A DNA stretch of 12,427 bases. Source: Atribacterota bacterium (GTDB lineage Bacteria > Atribacterota > Phoenicimicrobiia > Phoenicimicrobiales > Phoenicimicrobiaceae). Location: NCBI GenBank assembly GCA_038203565.1, contig JBBRDV010000038.1, positions 1 through 12,427 of the forward strand, given 5' to 3'. Of the stretch, positions 1,417-12,427 are shown piece after piece. Numbering within the stretch: the first letter of the stretch is position 1; every line of letters starts with the position of its first letter. Below the pieces are notes generated by a model. That model did not search any database. It saw nothing but the letters and a program-made list of their open reading frames with translations, and was not told the DNA's origin. The translations under genes and the position numbers were made by a program.

Positions 1417-1974
1417 CTAAAATAATTTATTACTATTTATTTTAAAGCTTCTTACAATTTCTTTAAAATCATAATTTGGTAATTTTCTCTTTTTTCTTTT
1501 CATATCGTCCCATATTTGGCATCCTTCTTCTAAAGAAATATAGTTTTTTTCATAACTCAAATACAATATATCTTTAGTACAAACATATGGTAGTCTATCT
1601 TTTTCAACATATGGCAAAATATCTCTTAGATTATTACTTGCAAGAGTTCCACTAAGCGCTCTAGTTAGCACAATAGCGGCTGCTTCCCCTTTACCTATTC
1701 TTTTAGGATTTTTCATAGATATTAAATTAAAATATTCGGTAAACTCCTGACTGGGGATGGCGATATCCCTTAACTTAAAATTTCCTTTTAATATTTGAGA
1801 TTTCAGATCATTAAAGACAAACCTATATTGGGAACTTTTTATTTTATCGAGTTCATCATAAACCGACTGCGGAATAATAATTTGATTAGGGAAAAGAGCA
1901 TTTACAATATCTAATCTTTTTATCCATAAGAAAGATGAGATACAATCATTATCGAATACGATCGGCAATTCCAA
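1417..1974 (-). CDS. PIN-domain protein (putative ribonuclease toxin)
   Basis: N-terminal IVFDNDCISSF, IIIPQSVYDEL, GKGEAAAI and LASNN match the PIN fold pattern. TTG start with SD GAGGAGG (1984-1990); overlaps the upstream gene by 26 nt. Confidence 0.85.
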   Translation of the reverse strand: MELPIVFDNDCISSFLWIKRLDIVNALFPNQIIIPQSVYDELDKIKSSQYRFVFNDLKSQILKGNFKLRDIAIPSQEFTEYFNLISMKNPKRIGKGEAAAIVLTRALSGTLASNNLRDILPYVEKDRLPYVCTKDILYLSYEKNYISLEEGCQIWDDMKRKKRKLPNYDFKEIVRSFKINSNKLF

Positions 1975-2743
1975 GCCCTATTTCCTCCTCGTTTTCATTT
2001 CCCTTTTCCCCGAAGAGGATTTTTTCAAACTTTCCATCTATTAATAATTCTTCATATTTTCCATAAGAAATACTCCCTTTTTCTAACAACTCTTCTGCCA
2101 ATTCAGCATAGTCAGAATAAATAATCGTTCCATTTTTTTTCGTGTCTTTATAAAGTGCTGTATTATATCCTAATTTATTTGCTTCATAAATAATCCCATT
2201 TTTCATAAGTCCTATTTCTTTTTCTGAGATAATATTTATTAACTTCAATCTAATGAGCATCAAAGCATGGCTAACCATAAAATAATTTTCTAAATAGATT
2301 AAATCTCTTATATTTAATTTATTTCCTTTTATTCTTTTATCAACGTAATATTTTAATGATTCATCAGGCATTAAAAAATGAGAAGCAAAATAATTTGCTT
2401 CCATTTCATTTTCGTAATCATCATTATACTTATTTATGGGACATATCTTACCATTCATTCCTTTGTCGTACTTAAAATGATAATATTCATGAGCAGCTGT
2501 AAATCTTTGATGACCAAAAGAGCGGGAGGAATTTATTACAATTAAACAAATATCTTCTTTTCTTAAAAAAAATCCTGAAATATTTCCCTTTAATTCTGTA
2601 ACTATTATTGATATCTTTTCTTTTTTTCTTAAAACTTTTAAAATGTCTACATCTATAGGCTCACTTAAATTAATACCTAATTCATTCCTTGTATCTATCG
2701 CTCTATTCCTTGCCCTACTTTCTATAAATTTATAATTGTTCAT
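1949..2743 (-). CDS. ImmA/IrrE family Zn metallopeptidase
   Basis: RFTAAHEYYH (HExxH), E-x-EANYFASHFLMP, ISGF motif. Start is either GTG 2752 (GTGA overlap with the XRE stop) or ATG 2743, which has AAGGAG 8 nt upstream. Confidence 0.92.
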   Translation of the reverse strand: MNNYKFIESRARNRAIDTRNELGINLSEPIDVDILKVLRKKEKISIIVTELKGNISGFFLRKEDICLIVINSSRSFGHQRFTAAHEYYHFKYDKGMNGKICPINKYNDDYENEMEANYFASHFLMPDESLKYYVDKRIKGNKLNIRDLIYLENYFMVSHALMLIRLKLINIISEKEIGLMKNGIIYEANKLGYNTALYKDTKKNGTIIYSDYAELAEELLEKGSISYGKYEELLIDGKFEKILFGEKGNENEEEIGLGIADRIR

Positions 2744-2748
2744 CAAAA

Positions 2749-3093
2749 TCACTCCTTGATCAAATCATTCATTTCGCATAAATTATTTAAAAAAGTTTTC
2801 GTCCATGAAATTGTTTTTAAGTCTTCATTAGATAAATTTTCTCCCCGAAAAGCTATTTGTATTTCTGGCTCTTTTATCTCACTATCAGTGACAAAATAAT
2901 TAATTTTATATCCATAAAGATTTGCAAGTTTTTCAAGTATATTTAAATTAATTTCTCTTGCTGCTGTTTCATAGTAAGATAATTGGGCTTTATTTATACC
3001 TATTAACTTAGTTACCTGTACTTGAGTTAAGCCTGACTTTTTTCGAGCTTCTTGGAGTTTTATTCCTATCGATTTAAGCATAGAATTATCCAT
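2749..3093 (-). CDS. XRE-family HTH transcriptional regulator
   Basis: IGIKLQEARKKSGLTQVQVTKLIGINKAQLSYYETAAREINLNILEKLA is an HTH_3 pattern; C-terminal IAFRG. ATG 3093 is preceded by AAAGGAGGA (the ORF track start at 3114 is less likely). Confidence 0.92.
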   Translation of the reverse strand: MDNSMLKSIGIKLQEARKKSGLTQVQVTKLIGINKAQLSYYETAAREINLNILEKLANLYGYKINYFVTDSEIKEPEIQIAFRGENLSNEDLKTISWTKTFLNNLCEMNDLIKE

Positions 3094-3107
3094 TATTAAT
3101 TCCTCCT

Positions 3108-3167
3108 TTAACATATAAGTTAATTTTATATGTCTTTTCTTATGAATTATAACATATATGTTGTAAT
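3108..3167 (-). promoter_or_regulatory. Extended -10 promoter and two palindromic operators upstream of the XRE gene
   Basis: Minus strand TGtTATAAT at 3154-3146. Palindromes TAACATATATGTTG (3150-3163, inside a 22-bp near-perfect palindrome 3146-3167) and TAACATATAAGTTA (3109-3122), 41 bp apart. Confidence 0.7.
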
Positions 3168-4399: not shown

Positions 4400-4467
4400 T
4401 ATATTGGTTATATTATATATTTAATATTATAACCTGTCAATAGCTATTTACTGGTTATAATATTAAA
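4381..4467. promoter_or_regulatory. Two TATAACC-N18-GGTTATA operators (putative CGNR/ABATE binding sites)
   Basis: Site 1: 4381-4412. Site 2: 4420-4467 with perfect 15-bp arms TTTAATATTATAACC / GGTTATAATATTAAA. Both have an 18-bp spacer. Confidence 0.75.
4412..4440 (-). promoter_or_regulatory. Sigma-70 promoter of the divergent small-ORF operon
   Basis: Minus strand TTGACA (4440-4435) - 17 bp - TATAAT (4417-4412), perfect consensus. Confidence 0.8.
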
Positions 4468-4481
4468 AGAGGTAAAATTTT

Positions 4482-5114
4482 ATGGTAGGGGTTAAAACAA
4501 ATGCCGGTAATCTCTCTTTAGAGAGCGGAGAGCTGTGTCTTGACTTTACTAATACTGTTGATTGGCGAAACGATAATAAAAGACAAAAAGAATGGCTCAA
4601 TGATTTTTCTGATTTAATTTTATGGAGTAGACATGCAGGTATAATAGAAGAAAAAACTGCCCAAGCACTATCGCTAAAAGCCTTGCAGCAGCCAGATAAG
4701 GCAAAACAGGTCTATAAAAAAGCAATGGAATTAAGAGAAATACTTTTTCACCTATTCTCATTCCTTGCCATAGAAAGAAAGCCCGAAGATTACAATCTTT
4801 CCATCTTTAATCACTTCCTTGTAGAGACTATGGGTAAATCACGCCTAGTATCTTGCCAAGATGGCTTCACCTGGTCCTTTTACCAAGATCCAGATGCTAT
4901 GGATTTTATGCTAAATCCGATTATAAAATCAGCAGCCGATTTCTTAGTTTCTCCTAATTTAAAACGTTTAAAAATATGTGCGGAAAAAAGTTGTGGTTGG
5001 TTATTTATTGATATGAGTCGTAATTATAGCAGACGCTGGTGTAATATGAAAGATTGTGGTAACAGAGCTAAAGCCCATCGGTATTATCAGCGCAAGCGTC
5101 AGGAGAAAAAATAA
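4482..5114 (+). CDS. ABATE/CGNR zinc-finger domain transcriptional regulator
   Basis: N-terminal LCLDFTNT; C-terminal CAEKSCGWLFIDMSRNYSRRWCNMKDCGNRAKAHRYYQR; SD AAGAGG. Confidence 0.95.
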   Translation: MVGVKTNAGNLSLESGELCLDFTNTVDWRNDNKRQKEWLNDFSDLILWSRHAGIIEEKTAQALSLKALQQPDKAKQVYKKAMELREILFHLFSFLAIERKPEDYNLSIFNHFLVETMGKSRLVSCQDGFTWSFYQDPDAMDFMLNPIIKSAADFLVSPNLKRLKICAEKSCGWLFIDMSRNYSRRWCNMKDCGNRAKAHRYYQRKRQEKK

Positions 5115-6603: not shown

Positions 6604-6663
6604 TGGGGTCAAATCTTTATTCTTAACAGTTAATTAAACTATTTGTCAAGAATAAAGACCCCA
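6604..6663. repeat. 60-bp inverted-repeat element (MITE/REP-like)
   Basis: Left arm TGGGGTC[AAATC]TTTATTCTTAACA; reverse complement of right arm TGGGGTCTTTATTCTTGACA; AT-rich centre. Confidence 0.6.
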
Positions 6664-6687: not shown

Positions 6688-7476
6688 TCATTTGCACAAT
6701 CTTTGACGAACTGCATCATATAGAATTATTCCAGCAGCTACTGATGCATTTAGGGATTCAGTAGTTCCTAAGATAGGAATTTTTATCTGTTTATAAGCTG
6801 CCTTCCTCCATATATCATTTGGTCCCCTATTTTCGTTTCCAATGACCAAAGCGAAAGGTTCTTTGAGGTTAACGGAATAGTAATATTCTTCACCATCTAA
6901 ATCTGCTACTATAATATTTATAGAGTTATGGCTTAACCATCTGACAACTTCCTCATCGTCAAGACCATTTACAATAGGCAGCTGAAACAGTGAGCCCATG
7001 GTAGATCTGATAACTTTTGGGTTGAATAAATCTACAGTTCCTTTAGTTAATAATACGCAAGCAGCACCTGCTGCAGCGCTGGTTCTTATGATTGTTCCAA
7101 GATTTCCGGGATCCTGTAGGCCATTTAAAACAACTACTAAAGGATTTGCACCAAGAATTATATCTGCCAATGATATTTCTATTTGCTCAGCTACCGCTAT
7201 TATTCCTTGAGGGCTAACCGTATCTGAAACTTCCTTAAATAGATTATTGGGCAGCCTTAAAACCTGGCAACCTTGATTAATTTTTGGTAAATTTTCTACG
7301 GTTTCATTAATAATAAGGTATTTTATTTTTACTCCCCTGCTATTCGCTTCCTCAAGAAGTCTGGTGCCTTCTATGAGAAATAATCCATTGCTTTCACGAA
7401 CTTTTTTTTGACTTAAGGATTTTATTAACTTATATATTGAATTTTCCTTGGAAGTAATATCTTTATACTGCTTCAT
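6688..7476 (-). CDS. TrmH/SpoU family RNA methyltransferase
   Basis: SPOUT motifs LQDPGNLGTIIRT, IGNENRG, ESLNASVAAGIILY; N-terminal FLIEG substrate-binding domain; SD GAGGAG. Confidence 0.95.
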   Translation of the reverse strand: MKQYKDITSKENSIYKLIKSLSQKKVRESNGLFLIEGTRLLEEANSRGVKIKYLIINETVENLPKINQGCQVLRLPNNLFKEVSDTVSPQGIIAVAEQIEISLADIILGANPLVVVLNGLQDPGNLGTIIRTSAAAGAACVLLTKGTVDLFNPKVIRSTMGSLFQLPIVNGLDDEEVVRWLSHNSINIIVADLDGEEYYYSVNLKEPFALVIGNENRGPNDIWRKAAYKQIKIPILGTTESLNASVAAGIILYDAVRQRLCK

Positions 7477-7585
7477 CTATAATACTCCTCTATAGATCCT
7501 CCCTCATTCGAGATAAATTACCTTATTCACTCATTACAGGGTTTATGTTTTATTCTACAAAAACTATCACATTTCAAACACCGAA

Positions 7586-8527
7586 TTATAAGCTATTTTG
7601 CTTCTGTAACCTATCTTTTATTCTTACTACATAATAGCTAATCCAACCAGAAGGTTCTTTCTTCTGGTTAAAATCCCATTCTCTCCAACTCCTATAAATT
7701 GATTCAGCCTTGTATTTTCCATCTTTATCAATAACTTTCTTTTCTATTTCTTTCATCATATCGATAAATCTATTATCTTTAACTATTTTACTATTCCTGG
7801 ATAGCACGTCTACCACATTTAATATATCATACCAAAATAATGGTGCTTTTAATTTCCTAAAATCATTACCCATATAAAACAAATAAGGATGCTCTTCTTT
7901 GCTTCTTTCCCATAATTGCAATAAACATTTACTACATATATCCTTTTCTTTTTCATATCCATCAAGTTCATTAAGTAACCGTAGCATTATTAAAGTAGCA
8001 TACGGACAGGGATCGTTTTTCTTACCGGGTCCACGAAAGGAACCAAGTTTTTTTGATACTTTACAATGGTAACCATTCTCGTCAATTAGATCTGCCAGGT
8101 ATTTTGTCGACTTTATTACTAAATTATTATCCTTTAAATCCATTTTAATTAGGGAATATACTATGGTCGGTGCATCACATAATGCCCATGCCCAGGTATC
8201 TTCTCCATTTCCACCATATCTAGTTGAAACATTCATGGGTAAGGTAAATGGTCCTTCCTCAGAAACATGGGTAAGTACTTTTTGAATAATTTCGGGAATA
8301 TCATCTACTGAAATTCCGAGATCAGTTAAGAAGAATAATTTATGAAATGGTTGATTTGCACTCTTGTGACTACTAAGTACTGTTCCAGGCCAATCCATTA
8401 ATTCATCCAATATAGTTTTAATCCTATTATCGGCTATCATTACTTTATTCTTTCCAGGTGAATTAGAGGTAATTAATCTTAACAGCGGGTCTTTGGAAGA
8501 AATCCAATCAACAAGTTTTGAATTCAT
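7586..8527 (-). CDS. Conserved hypothetical protein (possibly helical prenyltransferase/squalene-cyclase-like fold)
   Basis: Long ORF with motifs WALCDAP, FRGPGKKNDPCPYATL, GNDFRKLKAPLFWYDIL and KKEPSGWIS. ATG 8527 is preceded by AGGAGG (ORF track start 8545). Fold assignment is inference. Confidence 0.75.
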   Translation of the reverse strand: MNSKLVDWISSKDPLLRLITSNSPGKNKVMIADNRIKTILDELMDWPGTVLSSHKSANQPFHKLFFLTDLGISVDDIPEIIQKVLTHVSEEGPFTLPMNVSTRYGGNGEDTWAWALCDAPTIVYSLIKMDLKDNNLVIKSTKYLADLIDENGYHCKVSKKLGSFRGPGKKNDPCPYATLIMLRLLNELDGYEKEKDICSKCLLQLWERSKEEHPYLFYMGNDFRKLKAPLFWYDILNVVDVLSRNSKIVKDNRFIDMMKEIEKKVIDKDGKYKAESIYRSWREWDFNQKKEPSGWISYYVVRIKDRLQKQNSL

Positions 8528-8690
8528 AATAAACCTCCTATACAAAATGGTATAATATTCTTAGTGTTATGGATATTTCCTAATCTAGTTTCTTTTTTCT
8601 TAAAGCTAAATTTTCTGTGTCATTCGTATCTTCTTTAGGTTCAAGAAGGTCAATCAAGATCGTTCCTAGTATTTAACATCCTACCTGTGG

Positions 8691-8714
8691 CGTTTAACCG
8701 CTGTTGTACACAGT
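8691..8714 (-). other. attC-like left half-site (inverse core)
   Basis: 12 nt after the QueG-like stop, minus strand reads ACTGTGTACAAC-A-GCGGTTAAACG; complementary to the half-site at 9844-9877. Confidence 0.45.
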
Positions 8715-8726
8715 ATTTTCGGCAAT

Positions 8727-9425
8727 CTACTTTTTTCCTTTCGGACAAACAGATACGCATATTCCACATATGCTTATTTCCTTTTTGATTCTTTCTGCTG
8801 ATATTTTTCGGCAATATTCTCTGCATTTAAAAGGATCAAAAAATACATCTCTATCAATTGAAGTTGTCCATAATTGTCCGGTGGCCGCTTTAGCAGGACA
8901 ATGATTAACGCAAATATTACAACTTCCACATTGACTTTCATCTATTGGAATCCCGTTGTCAGAAATATTTACTGTCGTTAATACGCTGGCAAGTCTAACT
9001 CTTGGACCGAATCTTGATGTTACCAGTAAATCTGTTTTCCCAATCCATCCTATTCCTGATCTGGTTGCCGCCAATTTATGAGAAAAAGAATATCGTAATG
9101 TTTTTTCATAGGTATCATCAAGCTCACTGTCTTCTACAGTTGCTTTGATTGGATATGCTTCGATATGATAGGTTTTTAATAAGTTGGATATTACTTCGGT
9201 TTTCATGTTTAGCTCATTATTGATGTTACAATAAAGATCATAGTATAAATCAGTAGGGCCATTGGAAATTTGATTAATAATTTGATCATCTAATTTTCTT
9301 GCTAATGATATTCCATACTTATATTTTGAGTATTCTGGTTTTAATAATCCCGAGAGTTCAGCATACCCAATCTCATAATATTCTTGTGGACATATCTGTT
9401 TGATTTCATTTATTATTTTATTCAT
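8727..9425 (-). CDS. Epoxyqueuosine reductase (QueG)-like 4Fe-4S protein
   Basis: FSHKLAATRSGIGWIGK, FGPRVRLASVLT, CGSCNICVNHCP, C-x3-C and CGICVSVCP motifs. Short form, so true QueG activity is uncertain. Confidence 0.85.
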   Translation of the reverse strand: MNKIINEIKQICPQEYYEIGYAELSGLLKPEYSKYKYGISLARKLDDQIINQISNGPTDLYYDLYCNINNELNMKTEVISNLLKTYHIEAYPIKATVEDSELDDTYEKTLRYSFSHKLAATRSGIGWIGKTDLLVTSRFGPRVRLASVLTTVNISDNGIPIDESQCGSCNICVNHCPAKAATGQLWTTSIDRDVFFDPFKCREYCRKISAERIKKEISICGICVSVCPKGKK

Positions 9426-9555
9426 TTAATTCTCTTTTCTTTGGCTGAAAATAAGGATCCGTGAGAATGAACATAATATAACTCCTATGTAATCTTCTCC
9501 TCATAACTAATGAATAGACTGCGAATTTGCTATCTATTATGTTATAATACTTCTT

Positions 9556-9801
9556 TTATAATATATCAATTTTATTTTCTAATCCTTTTTTCTTGGTTAA
9601 ATATTTTGCATCTTCTATTAATTTTTCATCAATATCAATTACTTTTGAATTAGATGTAATGTTCAAAGATTTAAGAAGTTTATTCGTAGCTTCAAATCCA
9701 CCTGGACGAATTACTGTCATACCCACATGTTTGGCCATAAAATCAAAAATATCACATTTTGCCACAGAATTACATTCATTATTACAACTGAAATCTTCCA
9801 T
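9556..9801 (-). pseudogene. Class I SAM-dependent methyltransferase remnant
   Basis: RPGGFEATNKLL...SKVIDIDEKLIEDAK: the GxG motif I expected after VIDI is missing and the ORF stops after about 81 aa. ATG 9801 has SD GGAGGAGGA. Confidence 0.75.
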
Positions 9802-9843
9802 TTCAAATCCTCCTCCACACATAAAAACCAATTTATTTAACGC

Positions 9844-9877
9844 ACTTTTCATATAACGTGTGCGGATAAAAGAAGTT
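9844..9877 (-). other. attC-like right half-site (core GTT)
   Basis: Minus strand AACTTCTTTTATCCGC-ACAC-GTTATATGAAAAGT. TTATATGAAA also occurs in the site at 10249-10277. Confidence 0.5.
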
Positions 9878-10202
9878 ATAGTTCTACTCTATCCAAAAGT
9901 CCAGCTTTTTCAAATCTCTTCTTGCTAACTTCAAGCATCCCGGAGGAAATGTCGATACCATAAACCTTGCCATTCTCACCTACTGACTCAGCCATTTGTT
10001 TTAAGCAATGTCCAGTTCCAAAACCGATCTCCAAAACGATTTCCCCTCTCTTAAGGTTTAACCGCTCCAAGGCCATATTTCTATATTTTTTCTCGAAGAC
10101 TCCAGCGAAATAATCGTAAAATCGACTCATTTTATCATAACTCTCTTTTGCCTGAGCCTTGGTTCTATATACTCGTAATACTTGGTAATTTTTTGAGTTC
10201 AT
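9876..10202 (-). pseudogene. Class I SAM-dependent methyltransferase (UbiE-like), C-terminally truncated
   Basis: VLEIGFGTG motif I and GIDISSGML are present; the ORF stops at DRVEL (108 aa), before the remaining Rossmann strands. Confidence 0.8.
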
Positions 10203-10248
10203 TTCGTCAATATCTATCCAGTAGTTAATTTTTGGTGCATCGAGTGCA

Positions 10249-10277
10249 ATTTCATATAATTCGCTATTATGCGAATT
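10249..10277. other. Tyrosine-recombinase core site (dif/attI-like)
   Basis: ATTTCATATAA-TTCGCTA-TTATGCGAATT: 11-bp inverted arms (8/11 symmetric) with a 7-bp spacer, about 100 bp upstream of a tyrosine recombinase fragment. Confidence 0.6.
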
Positions 10278-10297
10278 ATTTTCATAATGTCATACTA

Positions 10298-10329
10298 ATA
10301 TTGTACAATATACGAAATCATGCTACTTT
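10298..10329 (+). promoter_or_regulatory. Putative integrase promoter with palindrome over -35
   Basis: TTGTAC (10301-10306) - 17 bp - TACTTT (10324-10329), preceded by TG at 10321-10322; perfect palindrome ATATTGTACAATAT at 10298-10311. Confidence 0.45.
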
Positions 10330-10374
10330 TTATTTAGTTTGAAAATAATTATATTTTATCAGAAACTAACGAAT

Positions 10375-10536
10375 ATGCAAAATCAAATTGAACCAACAGA
10401 ACGAGAACTGAAAATTAGAAACTATAGCCCCAATACTATAAAAAGCTACATATACGGGCTCAAAGAATATTTTGTTTTCAAGAAACAGGATTTCGAGAAC
10501 CTAAATGAAGAAATTCGGGTGAATGCTGGCGAGTGA
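10375..10536 (+). pseudogene. Tyrosine recombinase (integron-integrase/Xer-like) N-terminal SAM-like domain fragment
   Basis: MQNQIEPTERELKIRNYSPNTIKSYIYGLKEYF matches the L-x-x-R-N-Y-S-x-x-T-x-x-x-Y N-terminus of these integrases. Resemblance ends near 10515; no catalytic domain. Confidence 0.8.
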
Positions 10537-10769
10537 TGGTGTAAAATACCGCATTTTCCAACTGGCAGTGTGAGTTCAAAAATATTCGAATAGACTTCAC
10601 CCAAAATTTGTAGGGTGGGCGGAATTCCTCCTAGACCCTCCTTTTCACCCACCTGCGGAAGCGACCCTTTCGAACCTGCCTGCCGGCCAGGCAGGTTGGA
10701 CGATTTCAAGTTTTTCGATCCGCTTTTAGCGGAACTCCGACCTTCACTCGATTTGGCGGCAAATTCTTT
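10511..10769. other. GC-rich structured non-coding element
   Basis: Hairpins AACCTGCCTG-CCGGC-CAGGCAGGTT (10673-10697), TCCGCT-TTT-AGCGGA (10719-10733), imperfect GGGTGGGCGGAATTCCTCCTAGACCC (10613-10638) and TATTCGAATA (10583-10592). GGGTGAA (10517-10523) can pair with TTCACCC (10596-10602 or 10644-10650). Confidence 0.55.
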
Positions 10770-12232
10770 TTATGGGTTTTTCAAAATTTTAATCAATTCC
10801 TCTGTTGATGTCTTTAATTCTTGCGGTGTGCAACTTCCATTATTCGTGTTTTCTGGATGATGAATCGAATTTCTAACAAATGTCATTAGCGTTGTATCTT
10901 CTGACTGTTGCACTTGTCCATTTTGGATTTTAGCCATTTTTTTGATTTTGTAATCCCTTTGCCTACAAAATATGATTCAGCTTTATCAATTGTATATTTT
11001 TTCTGATTTTCTTGTATGTAACCATAAAGTTCATTATGAAATTCAATTGTCGGTAAACCGTATGCAGAATAGTTTATCTCTCCCCAAGATGGACTCCAAG
11101 GAAACAATCCAAACTGATTGTCTGTATTTTCAATTATTATTCCATCTGCCCCGTTCTTTGTTATAAGCAATTCAATTTTCGGATTGCATAGGCAGTTTTT
11201 GAAAAAATATGGTGAGTGGGTAGAAATATAAACTTGATTGGTCTTCGAAAATCCAATGAGATATTGGATAAATTTTTCCTGTAGATAGGGGTGCAAATGA
11301 AGTTCTGGCTCGTCAATCAAAACTATTATTTTTTCTTTTGAAAGTGAGGCCAACGTTTCCAAAAACAAAAGAGAGATAATCATTTCAACGCCTGATCCAA
11401 GATTGGTAACGGGTAAATCAAAATTGTCTAACTTTTGTGCTAAAAAGGCACTATCAAAAGGGGCATTCCCGTCAATAAAAGAAAGGTCAATATTTTGAAG
11501 CTCAAAATCTTTTAGCTTTTTATTCAACGCTTCAAAACACTTTTTTACAGAAGCCTCATCAACCTTGTTGACTATTTCTTTTTCAAAATTAATTTTCTTT
11601 GTGAAAAAGCTCTCTTGGCCTTCGACTAATTCTTCTCCCCTAACGCCTTTTGAAAAACGCCAATTAAAGTCTTCAAGAACAGAAGAGATTGAGGAATTAA
11701 AACCTTTTTGCAATTGTCTTTCTCTATTTTTATTGAAATAGAAGCTTTTTGGAAATTCCTCTAGTTTAACTTTAGATAGAGAAAGTAATCTCTCATCAAA
11801 CTGAAATTTCGTTCCGGTTTTTCTCTGTATCTCCCAGCCACTGTCGTTATCCTTAGGTCTATTGGGAATTACGTAATGAGTTAAAACAACAATGTCAGAA
11901 AATGCCTTGCCTGCTGCTGCTTTATCTCTTTTCTTTATTTCCAAAGAGACACTCTTACATTCAACTTTTTGTGTTGTGTATCCGTCCGGTAAAATAGCAG
12001 TAAATATAGAATCAAATTCTATCTGAATAATAATCGGTTCATTATTGCCGTTAAAAAAATCCGTATGTTTTAGTCTTCCCGACAAAAAATAAGGTGAAAG
12101 AGCGTAGTTGATTGCCTCAATAATCGATGTTTTACCAGTCCCATTATTGCCAATAAAAATTGACAGCTCTTTAGAGTTAAAGCTCTGTTCTTTGATTGCA
12201 CGAAAATTTTTTATTGTAATTTTGGTGATCAT
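10770..12232 (-). pseudogene. ABC-type (AAA_15/AAA_21-like) ATPase with C-terminal HEPN-like nuclease motif; 1-nt frameshift near 10930
   Basis: Walker A GNNGTGKT, signature LGSG, Walker B LIDEPELHLHP, H-loop STHSP. The ORF stops at 10886, but the -1 frame continues IQNGQVQQSEDTTLMTFVRNSIHHPENTNNGSCTPQELKTSTEELIKILKNP* to 10770, giving 487 aa if one base is restored. Confidence 0.8.
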
Positions 12233-12427
12233 AATGTTACTTCATTTAATGTCGTTTTTTCTTCAAGACTATAAACAAATTTATCTATATCTAAAATCCT
12301 TACCTCAAAGCCGTCTGTTTTAATAAATTTGAAATATCGGTGGGTGTCAATAAATGCTCTTGGCGAAATAAATACAGAATATGCTTTTGTACCTTTTTTG
12401 ATATATTCTTCTAAATGTATTCGTACC
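12229..12427 (-). CDS. C-terminal end of a probable AlwI-family type IIS restriction endonuclease (partial)
   Basis: Open frame from the window edge: VRIHLEEYIKKGTKAYSVFISPRAFIDTHRYFKFIKTDGFEVRILDIDKFVYSLEEKTTLNEVTL*. Resembles the V-x-x-HL...FI(A/S)P-x4-DT tail of AlwI-like enzymes. Its TGA overlaps the ATPase ATG (ATGA). Confidence 0.5.
   Translation of the reverse strand, partial: VRIHLEEYIKKGTKAYSVFISPRAFIDTHRYFKFIKTDGFEVRILDIDKFVYSLEEKTTLNEVTL

Follow-up and report, generated by a model that had tools for sequence, protein, structure and literature searches.

An eroded integron-like cassette platform in an Atribacterota genome, with a recombinase of a family lacking the IntI insertion

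In the 12,427-nt stretch of Atribacterota DNA analysed here (the window), we find what is left of a system for capturing gene cassettes. Its layout is that of an integron, and its recombinase lacks a segment thought essential for integrons. We read the locus, with a probability of roughly 0.78, as the dead head of a Patescibacteria-type, integron-like platform, which was acquired by an ancestor within the Atribacterota at tRNA-Ser(CGA). At this locus, the recombinase gene and a set of co-oriented genes point away from a shared site on either side, and three cassettes are supported in the window, all of them eroded: two methyltransferase pseudogenes and a QueG-like gene. Deletions have broken the recombinase, both methyltransferases and every hairpin in the window. 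The original prediction of an eroded, non-canonical integron-like capture system holds, because intact homologues carry a conserved site, repeated hairpins and variable first genes; intact homologues with neither repeated sites nor variable genes had been named as the finding that would speak against it, and both are present in the intact kin. No description of the system was found in the literature searched.

The recombinase remnant (10375–10515, plus strand) consists of codons 1–44 of a 270-aa tyrosine recombinase and three codons from about residue 85. The internal deletion that joins codon 44 to this point recurs identically in P0002, and the ORF continues to a stop at 10536, within foreign DNA, the catalytic domain being absent. 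The predicted tyrosine-recombinase N-terminus at 10375 is recognizable, as the ORF at 10375–10536 matches Phage_int_SAM_4 weakly (E = 5e-4), and residues 1–44 are 93% identical to a 271-aa recombinase. The adjoining positions 10516–10566 (plus strand) are a copy of 51 bp that abut the 3' end of tRNA-Ser(CGA) on contig C12, and in one related sediment contig (X5, contig 29) the sequence past 10566 is tRNA-like and matches C12. We infer that this copy marks where a restriction-modification island separated the tRNA from the remnant. The peptide at the right end of the window was found in none of 40 relatives searched. In X2, a joint runs from 10452 to 8653.

Next to the remnant lies an attI-like site, and the recombinase-type core predicted at 10249–10277 is present. 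Its platform side (10260–10316) comprises a 7-nt centre (10260–10266), an L arm (10267–10277) and two further conserved boxes at about 10279–10288 and 10301–10316, which are probably accessory binding sites. Positions 10249–10259 (minus strand) are the cassette-derived R' arm of cassette 1, with the crossover between 10260 and 10259, and 10249 is where identity to five related platforms begins. The centre of dif is 6 nt, between two 11-bp arms, whereas that of attI is 7 nt; a dif site was rejected on this spacing, as 7 nt lie between TAA and TTA. Of the extended Xer/dif-like arms that had been proposed, the conservation over about 10–11 nt beyond the crossover was confirmed, while the likeness to dif was not, the centre being that of attI. 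Across the family, the attI-like core is present in 52 of 74 loci with the crossover fixed at G/TT, where family conservation stops, and six contigs among these 52 loci end at most 5 nt from AAC. The window copy is mutated to A/TT; position 10260 departs from the family's AAC, and AAT is found in 6 of 16 near-identical platforms. The distance between the site and the 270-aa gene is near-fixed across many phyla (mode 117–118 nt, range 61–161 nt). The motif TTATATGAAA, reported ahead of the first two genes, is indeed found at 10259–10250 and 9856–9847, with about 0.03 copies expected on one strand of 3.8 kb; it has 35 copies genome-wide and, taken alone, is modest evidence. A search for a Pc promoter gave a 10/12 sigma-70-like match (10293–10266, minus strand) that points into the array, in a region with 10 such matches compared to 10.4 in shuffles.

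Beyond the crossover, the gene of cassette 1 (9876–10202, minus strand) encodes a UbiE-like class I SAM methyltransferase cut after 108 aa, and the deletion also took the left half of the cassette's attC-like site. Both X2 and X5 contigs continue at 9878 into the intact gene, and at another locus (L153) the same cassette stands behind another hairpin half, with its frame continuing; a DNA search of 85 other genomes of the phylum found no intact copy of cassette 1 or 2. A hairpin right half with the R' arm of cassette 2 follows (9846–9877, minus strand), comprising the L' stem, the 4-nt loop side and G/TT at 9857/9856. An attC-like half had been predicted at 9844–9877, and the right half at 9877–9846 ranks first genome-wide with a half-site matrix (33.0 bits) and, over 32 nt, is 97% identical to the corresponding half of complete sites in genome G014. 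The cassette 2 gene (9556–9801, minus strand) is a pseudogene of a 266-aa class I SAM methyltransferase with a 24-aa internal deletion and an end near residue 102; a start at 9852 was rejected, as homology begins at 9801. The genes on this strand are co-oriented, as had been described, but the first two are both class I SAM methyltransferase pseudogenes and not functionally unrelated.

Cassette 3 (8703–9453, minus strand) carries a QueG-like 4Fe-4S gene (9425–8727) with an intact frame of 232 aa; its terminal inverted arms lie at 9453–9441 and 8725–8714, and its R' box is lost. An X2 contig leaves the window at 9453, entering a hairpin right half. At the other end, an attC-like hairpin left half (8688–8713, minus strand) retains R'', with AAC at 8705–8703, and the start of the stem, the partner half being lost. 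As an attC-like half, the stretch predicted at 8691–8714 is weak by score (16.0 bits, fourth genome-wide and in the background tail), with support coming from its position and from relatives, which diverge just past the R'' box of the left half (8713–8689); an X5 contig matches 8689–8832. There is no complete attC-like site in the window, where the best covariance-model match (E = 0.12) is the attI itself. An Rfam scan of the window returned three chance-level matches only, and a generic repeat finder no informative family.

The left boundary, originally placed at 6688 with uncertainty, is revised: the array ends near 8690, and nothing marks 6688–8545 as cassettes. A 313-aa gene and TrmH in this interval were rejected as cassettes: of 40 relatives, 5 have a homologue of the former and 15 of the latter, with varied neighbours. 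Pfam and NCBIfam give no match for the 313-aa protein, whose only lead is weak and squalene-hopene-cyclase-like (12% of one cluster). In 29 cargo-gene loci searched, QueG-like ones included, there was no model match within 1.5 kb. Gene order varies readily across this genus, including among genes that have no sites.

Intact kin of the recombinase are found mostly in the ultra-small Patescibacteria. Within the host's own order, one genome (G028) has an intact enzyme of 272 aa adjoining tRNA-Ser, with 10 attC-like hairpins. That gene content after the site is variable, as predicted, is seen in 17 near-identical platforms, several of them near-duplicate loci, which have 8 different first genes and no intact recombinase (0/17). 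In intact arrays, a hairpin follows each gene, with compensatory changes. Using a hairpin pattern defined after 10 of the loci had been viewed, we count 34 hairpins on the cassette strand and none on the other across 152,889 nt upstream at 60 loci, compared to 2 and 0 in 263,338 nt downstream and 1 in 446,598 nt of shuffled sequence; this strict scan gave no site at 13 of the 34 loci that have long upstream DNA. The 69 covariance-model matches come mostly from loci that were not used for training. In them, 94.9% of cells are paired (30–43% in slid controls) and both partners vary at 10 of the 15 pairs, figures that lean towards structure because scan and model both reward pairing. The 11-bp stem is free of indels in 60 of the 69 matches and has one extra right-arm base in 6, a count biased by training on ungapped stems. 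The predicted geometry, AAC-N-stem...stem-N4-GTT, is modal, with a 1 × 3–5 loop in 67 of 69. Complete sites are 62–206 nt long, and R'' and R' are about 40–180 nt apart in linear form. The R'' of a cassette pairs better with the cassette's own 5' end than with that of the next (13 versus 2 of 16 single-ORF first cassettes, Wilcoxon p = 0.002, a value overstated because related loci are not independent; 14 versus 3 among all 20 first cassettes).

In the host's class, hairpins occur in 30 of 52 genomes and an intact enzyme of the 270-aa type in only one of 52. G000 has one complete site, and its folding does not exceed that of shuffled sequence (z about 0.4–0.5). In three genomes (G010, G019 and G050), a longer insertion-less recombinase lies among hairpins of the same type, and that of G050 is inside an array that starts with the attI of the 270-aa family. 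The model found no sites in the 10 XerC/D and 14 IntI loci searched, which are short.

The original prediction proposed looking for the IntI-specific insertion in full-length homologues, where it proves to be absent, with about 43 aa missing. Full-length kin align with VchIntI4 (PDB 2A3V) in two pieces, query residues 179–197 standing against IntI4 183–244, and the same span measures 265–278 aa in the 270-aa family versus 313–322 aa in IntI. All three full-length kin match TIGR02249 in two stretches and below its cut-off (222–230 vs. 265 bits); they just pass NF040815 (XerA; 221–231 vs. a cut-off of 220 bits), a model that does not discriminate, since the host's own Xer genes also pass it. The best PDB match of the full-length enzyme is IntI4 (161 bits vs. 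145 for XerA). With a recombinase lacking the IntI insertion, the locus is not an integron by the current definition. A quick 53-row tree suggested that IntI is nested in, or sister to, insertion-less enzymes; a careful 37-row tree (16 long-branch or redundant rows dropped) does not resolve this branching (83/62 and 81/56), and we thus claim no order of events. Relatives of the enzyme were absent from 252 candidate stretches in viral contigs, and phage and plasmid records held none above about 43% identity.

As we picture the mechanism, the 270-aa enzyme would have bound two substrates, attI as a duplex and the cassette site as a folded bottom strand. Cleavage at AAC would then have let circular cassettes enter at attI, probably through one strand exchange resolved by replication, by analogy with IntI. 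Asymmetry would be provided by the 1 × 3–5 nt loop next to the R box, the L-box stem usually having no extrahelical base, and this loop may do the strand- and box-selection job of the extrahelical bases and I2 helix in integrons. In the available sections of one study, bottom-strand recombination was not notably affected at 2 of 3 attC sites when the extrahelical bases were deleted (PMC5027507); the need for I2 in cassette capture, as stated in part of another (PMC7790495), counts against an insertion-less proposal. The platform would then have lost its enzyme, frozen with three cassettes and been eroded by short-homology deletions. We consider it improbable that the same cassettes moved instead as double-stranded DNA by a classical two-exchange, Xer-like route, with the hairpin as a by-product, cruciform, accessory or RNA element, such that no I2 equivalent is needed. 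An enzyme without I2 and long conserved arms like those of sequence-recognised sites would suit such a route, as would the resemblance of each hairpin's right half to the linear attI core and the description of double-strand recombination as the ancestral activity (PMC7790495, in the sections available), but only folding unites the distant R'' and R' boxes in one core, the spacing of the right half varies (3–5 nt loop side), stem positions covary and each cassette's ends complement each other.

Whether the 270-aa gene is merely a linked passenger, with cassettes moved by the longer insertion-less type or the host XerCD, is a question raised by the many genomes of the class that have hairpins but no intact 270-aa enzyme and by the longer recombinases among the same hairpins. 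This is less probable again, given the near-fixed distance between attI-like site and 270-aa gene in many phyla, the 7-nt centre, which does not fit dif, the lack of model sites in the (short) XerC/D and IntI loci, and the position of the long G050 enzyme inside an array headed by the 270-aa family's attI. An ordinary decayed tRNA island with chance AT-rich motif matches could account for the genome-wide recurrence of TTATATGAAA, for a left half in the background tail and for gene order that is fluid even without sites; it is hardly credible when no other half-site in the genome outscores the right half, which also matches complete sites in relatives, when platforms stop being identical at the crossover arm, and when the same methyltransferase and QueG-like units stand behind hairpin halves elsewhere.

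A more far-reaching reading, to which we give somewhat less than even odds, is that integrons have a second lineage, able to recombine folded single-stranded cassette sites with no I2, an R-box-side loop replacing the extrahelical bases. Such a lineage would have kept pre-I2 chemistry, moved from Patescibacteria to Atribacterota and shared its cassette pool with a longer insertion-less recombinase that itself travels inside arrays. In the parts of the literature available to us, the I2 insertion is treated as necessary for cassette capture and as defining integron integrases, and evolutionary intermediates are reported to be lacking (PMC7790495, PMC4889954). With a natural family that has attI, folded sites and variable arrays and no I2, the origin of integrons becomes testable by existing conjugation assays, and surveys with IntI profiles would miss the cassette pool of the host's class. 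The window itself is a dead copy; its value lies in documenting a transfer into a non-CPR host and a stepwise decay, and it also points to an intact enzyme and array (G028, contig C11).

Among known systems, CALINs and eroded integrons likewise consist of cassette remains without a working recombinase, whereas the sites here are of a non-canonical type, none of them complete in the window. Xer/dif and archaeal XerA share the enzyme size without insertion and the 11-bp inverted arms, but the present sites have a 7-nt rather than a 6-nt centre and one arm is replaced at each insertion; the host's two full-length Xer-like genes lie elsewhere in the genome and on a separate branch (100/100). Simple tyrosine recombinases include an "integron-like" subgroup in which conservation of the insertion is incomplete and IS91/IS3-linked members lack it, and the available sections of these sources assign no cassette arrays or attI/attC-like sites to insertion-less members (PMC8138268; 10.1101/542381). 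In our 37-row tree, the ingroup also takes in IS91-linked and long relatives, and no hairpins were found near three plasmid-borne relatives (L219–L221). With sedentary chromosomal integrons (IntI/attI/attC), the system shares a divergent recombinase gene, a G/TT insertion site and co-oriented cassettes that end in a folded AAC...GTT site and show complementarity of their own ends. Unlike in integrons, the 270-aa enzymes lack the residues of the IntI insertion and stay below the TIGR02249 cut-off, and, compared to canonical attC, sites of the present family have a stem mostly without extrahelical bases, a 1 × 3–5 loop beside the R box, conserved arms of 10–11 nt and often two inner hairpins.

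The ORF at 10375–10536 has a weak SAM-like integrase match, and the tyrosine-recombinase N-terminus predicted at 10375 on the plus strand is borne out by its residues 1–44, which are 93% identical to a recombinase relative (P0004). Our search for longer relatives yielded 18 proteins out of 25 candidates, 11 of them 270–291 aa long. The three residues that follow residue 44 align with the full enzyme near its residue 85, and a second relative (P0002) has the same join with more sequence beyond it, indicating that the recombinase gene first suffered an internal deletion and was later truncated. A scan of species genomes resolves 74 family loci, titled mostly as Patescibacteria lineages, with some Omnitrophota, Actinomycetota, archaea, and Atribacterota. 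Three full-length members match TIGR02249 in two stretches, below its cut-off, and the NF040815 cut-off is narrowly passed by three full-length members. The best solved structure, VchIntI4 (2A3V), aligns in two pieces separated by 17 residues in the query versus 60 in IntI4. The check for the IntI-specific insertion, run on these full-length homologues as the original prediction had proposed, thus finds the insertion absent from the family.

A 37-row tree with the host's Xer proteins as its narrow outgroup (16 rows of an earlier 53-row set were dropped) recovers IntI as a single clade (100/100) and gives no resolution to the branching order of IntI and the insertion-less groups. The enzyme of G028, a genome of the host's order, groups with eight others, mostly titled Patescibacteria (99/97), a placement that points to transfer from Patescibacteria. 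G028 is the one genome among 52 of the host's class with an intact family enzyme, which adjoins tRNA-Ser(CGA) and 10 sites, 8 of them members of the covariance-model training set described below. Many Acinetobacter plasmids (plasmid matches H18–H40) carry a TnpF-type recombinase that is a 43% identical relative of the family.

A conserved core lies upstream of the recombinase gene in 52/74 loci, most commonly at a distance of 117–118 nt. Its information peaks from AAC towards the recombinase and extends ~10 nt into the cassette side before it is lost; the ends of six contigs lie ≤5 nt from the AAC. The window's core has 7 nt between TAA and TTA, the spacing of attI and not that of dif; the original prediction had the cores extended into 11-bp Xer/dif-like arms. 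It carries AAT instead of AAC, as do 5 others of the 16 near-identical platforms (recombinase gene plus adjacent attI-like site) that have a core. The predicted decamer TTATATGAAA is present at both 10259–10250 and 9856–9847, ahead of genes 1 and 2, and has 35 copies genome-wide; the number expected for a single strand of this stretch is ~0.03. Thirteen metagenome loci were recovered with a degenerate platform pattern, and the same platform remnant is present in 3/40 related genomes; an intact recombinase frame occurs in none of these 13 loci or 3 genomes. With the window, these make 17 near-identical platforms with 8 different first genes, several loci being near-duplicates: a methyltransferase, a flavin oxidoreductase, a molybdate transporter, RadC before a restriction-modification operon, a lipoate ligase, SelR, a PIN-like protein, and an unknown 187-aa protein. 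The first gene after the site thus varies between platforms, in line with the variation that the proposed gene-order test looks for. Loci L065 and L071, titled as Atribacterota, bear remnants of this platform too.

In intact loci, a site follows each early gene and consists of AAC, one base, an 11–12 bp stem, an inner region, the stem partner, 3–5 bases, and GTT. A strict scan of 60 loci for this hairpin, whose pattern was drawn up after 10 of those loci had been viewed, gives 34 sites in 152,889 nt of the upstream cassette strand and none on the opposite strand. The corresponding downstream counts are 2 and 0 in 263,338 nt, and shuffled sequence (446,598 nt) has 1. A site was found in 21/34 loci with at least 1.5 kb upstream. 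The first 8 nt of a cassette past GTT pair with that cassette's own R″ better than the next cassette's 8 nt do (among 16 single-gene cases, 13 versus 2), which would be expected of cassettes that are excised as circles closing the hairpin. A covariance model built from 31 sites has 69 matches in 68 further sources; these sources include 14 IntI and 10 Xer loci, all of them without a match. Across the matches, which are fitted to the model, pairing holds in 94.9% of cells and two-sided changes are numerous, 60/69 stems have no indel, and 67/69 have a 1 × 3–5 loop beside the R box. Model sites are present in 30/52 genomes of the host's class.

Short hairpin variants at three loci (L037, with several 62–72 nt sites, L033, and L034) have an additional G in the right arm of the stem, resembling an extrahelical base on the arm opposite to that described for attC. 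In the window's own genome (G000), one complete hairpin site follows a small membrane-protein gene (C67, 277–358, minus strand), and solo halves occur at C77 ~1037 (minus) and C45 ~9209 (plus), the former after the same molybdate transporter gene that is the first cassette in the related genome G002. A longer insertion-less recombinase of ~350 aa, whose N-terminal extension has no Pfam match, is found among the same hairpins in L192 (G050:C55, ~8000–16600), L191 (G010:C36), and L193 (G019:C10). In G050 it sits between two hairpins in an array headed by the 270-aa family's attI, as if carried like a cassette.

Within the window, the covariance-model search detects no complete hairpin site. Of the two attC-like halves claimed, the right (9877–9846) stands, ranking first genome-wide, while the left (8713–8688) is weak, ranking fourth genome-wide and inside the background. 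Gene 1 (10202–9876) encodes a class I methyltransferase truncated at 108 aa, and gene 2 (start at 9801) corresponds to a class I methyltransferase of 266 aa, from which it has lost 24 aa by deletion and in which it ends near residue 102; the two are not functionally unrelated, as had been thought. Locus L153 carries the same first cassette behind the right half of a hairpin, and the reading frame there runs beyond the window's stop. A contig from sequencing run X5 covers 9878–10566 and leads at one end to the intact methyltransferase and at the other to a tRNA-like sequence matching contig C12, from which we infer that the enzyme's death, and its position beside the tRNA, predate both the cassette-1 deletion and the arrival of the restriction island. 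At 9453 a run X2 contig departs from the window and continues into the right half of a hairpin, and 9453–9441 is complementary to 8725–8714, which together make the QueG-like gene 3 (9425–8727) the third cassette. The six other close homologues of this gene in relatives have differing surroundings, in which the R″ box is the most that remains. The short stretch 9453–9576, with junctions at both ends and a high contig depth in run X3, stands apart and is probably another repeated leader, outside both cassettes.

The evidenced extent of the array is 10259 to ~8690 and not the predicted 6688, with no cassette marks seen in the window or relatives' loci for the 313-aa gene without a family match (7586–8527) or the TrmH-family methylase gene (6688–7476). 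An MFS gene (6566–5403) also follows platform cargo in G002 and G009, and the variable zone may reach 6600 through other rearrangements. A REP- or MITE-like palindromic repeat (6606–6658) recurs on contigs C70, C4, C69, and C160 and in relatives. Further left, a 48-bp near-perfect palindrome (4420–4467), a possible operator, lies directly upstream of a CGNR zinc-finger regulator (4482–5114). Consecutive HTH regulator, IrrE/ImmA-like peptidase, and PIN-like genes (1417–3114, minus strand), adjacent to sigma-like genes at 560–1142, form a possible toxin–antitoxin or defence module (PADLOC candidate matches PDC-M69B, CapP, and PDC-S70).

The window is the entire contig C38 of a 1.97 Mb genome (34.8% GC). 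Its right end overlaps the end of C12 by 25 nt with one mismatch, within an AlwI-family endonuclease gene, and the locus thus extends on C12 past two Dam-type methylases as far as tRNA-Ser(CGA). An island (10516–12427 plus C12 25890–30473) bounded by a 51-bp repeat (92% identical) separates this tRNA from the remnant; it contains a RadC-Dam fusion, a second Dam methylase, the endonuclease split across the contig join, and an AAA ATPase (10886–12232) closest to PARIS AriA/Old. A GC-rich palindromic repeat (10567–10770) is also found beside related platforms and elsewhere in relatives.

The loci establish the layout, the crossover (G|TT), the variable content, the covarying hairpin, and the absent insertion. 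By analogy with integrons, the folded bottom strand of the cassette site would recombine with double-stranded attI, and the exchange would be resolved by replication. Passages of PMC7790495 describe I2, a helix of the IntI insertion, as docking extrahelical bases and as required for capture, and passages of PMC5027507 report bottom-strand recombination without extrahelical bases at two of three attC sites. An enzyme without I2 paired with a site without extrahelical bases is coherent on this analogy, and the asymmetric loop would be the obvious substitute signal. Recombination between double strands is a less likely alternative, as is the reading that the 270-aa gene is a passenger and not the mover of the cassettes.

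We found no published description of this cassette system in full-text literature that includes few subscription journals, and passages of PMC9024848 do not mention Patescibacteria or Atribacter. In passages of PMC8138268 and 10.1101/542381, enzymes that lack the insertion belong to an integron-like subgroup described without cassettes. The window contains a dead, three-cassette remnant of the cassette system. By its enzyme, which lacks the IntI insertion, the system falls outside the integrons, although by analogy it would work likewise.
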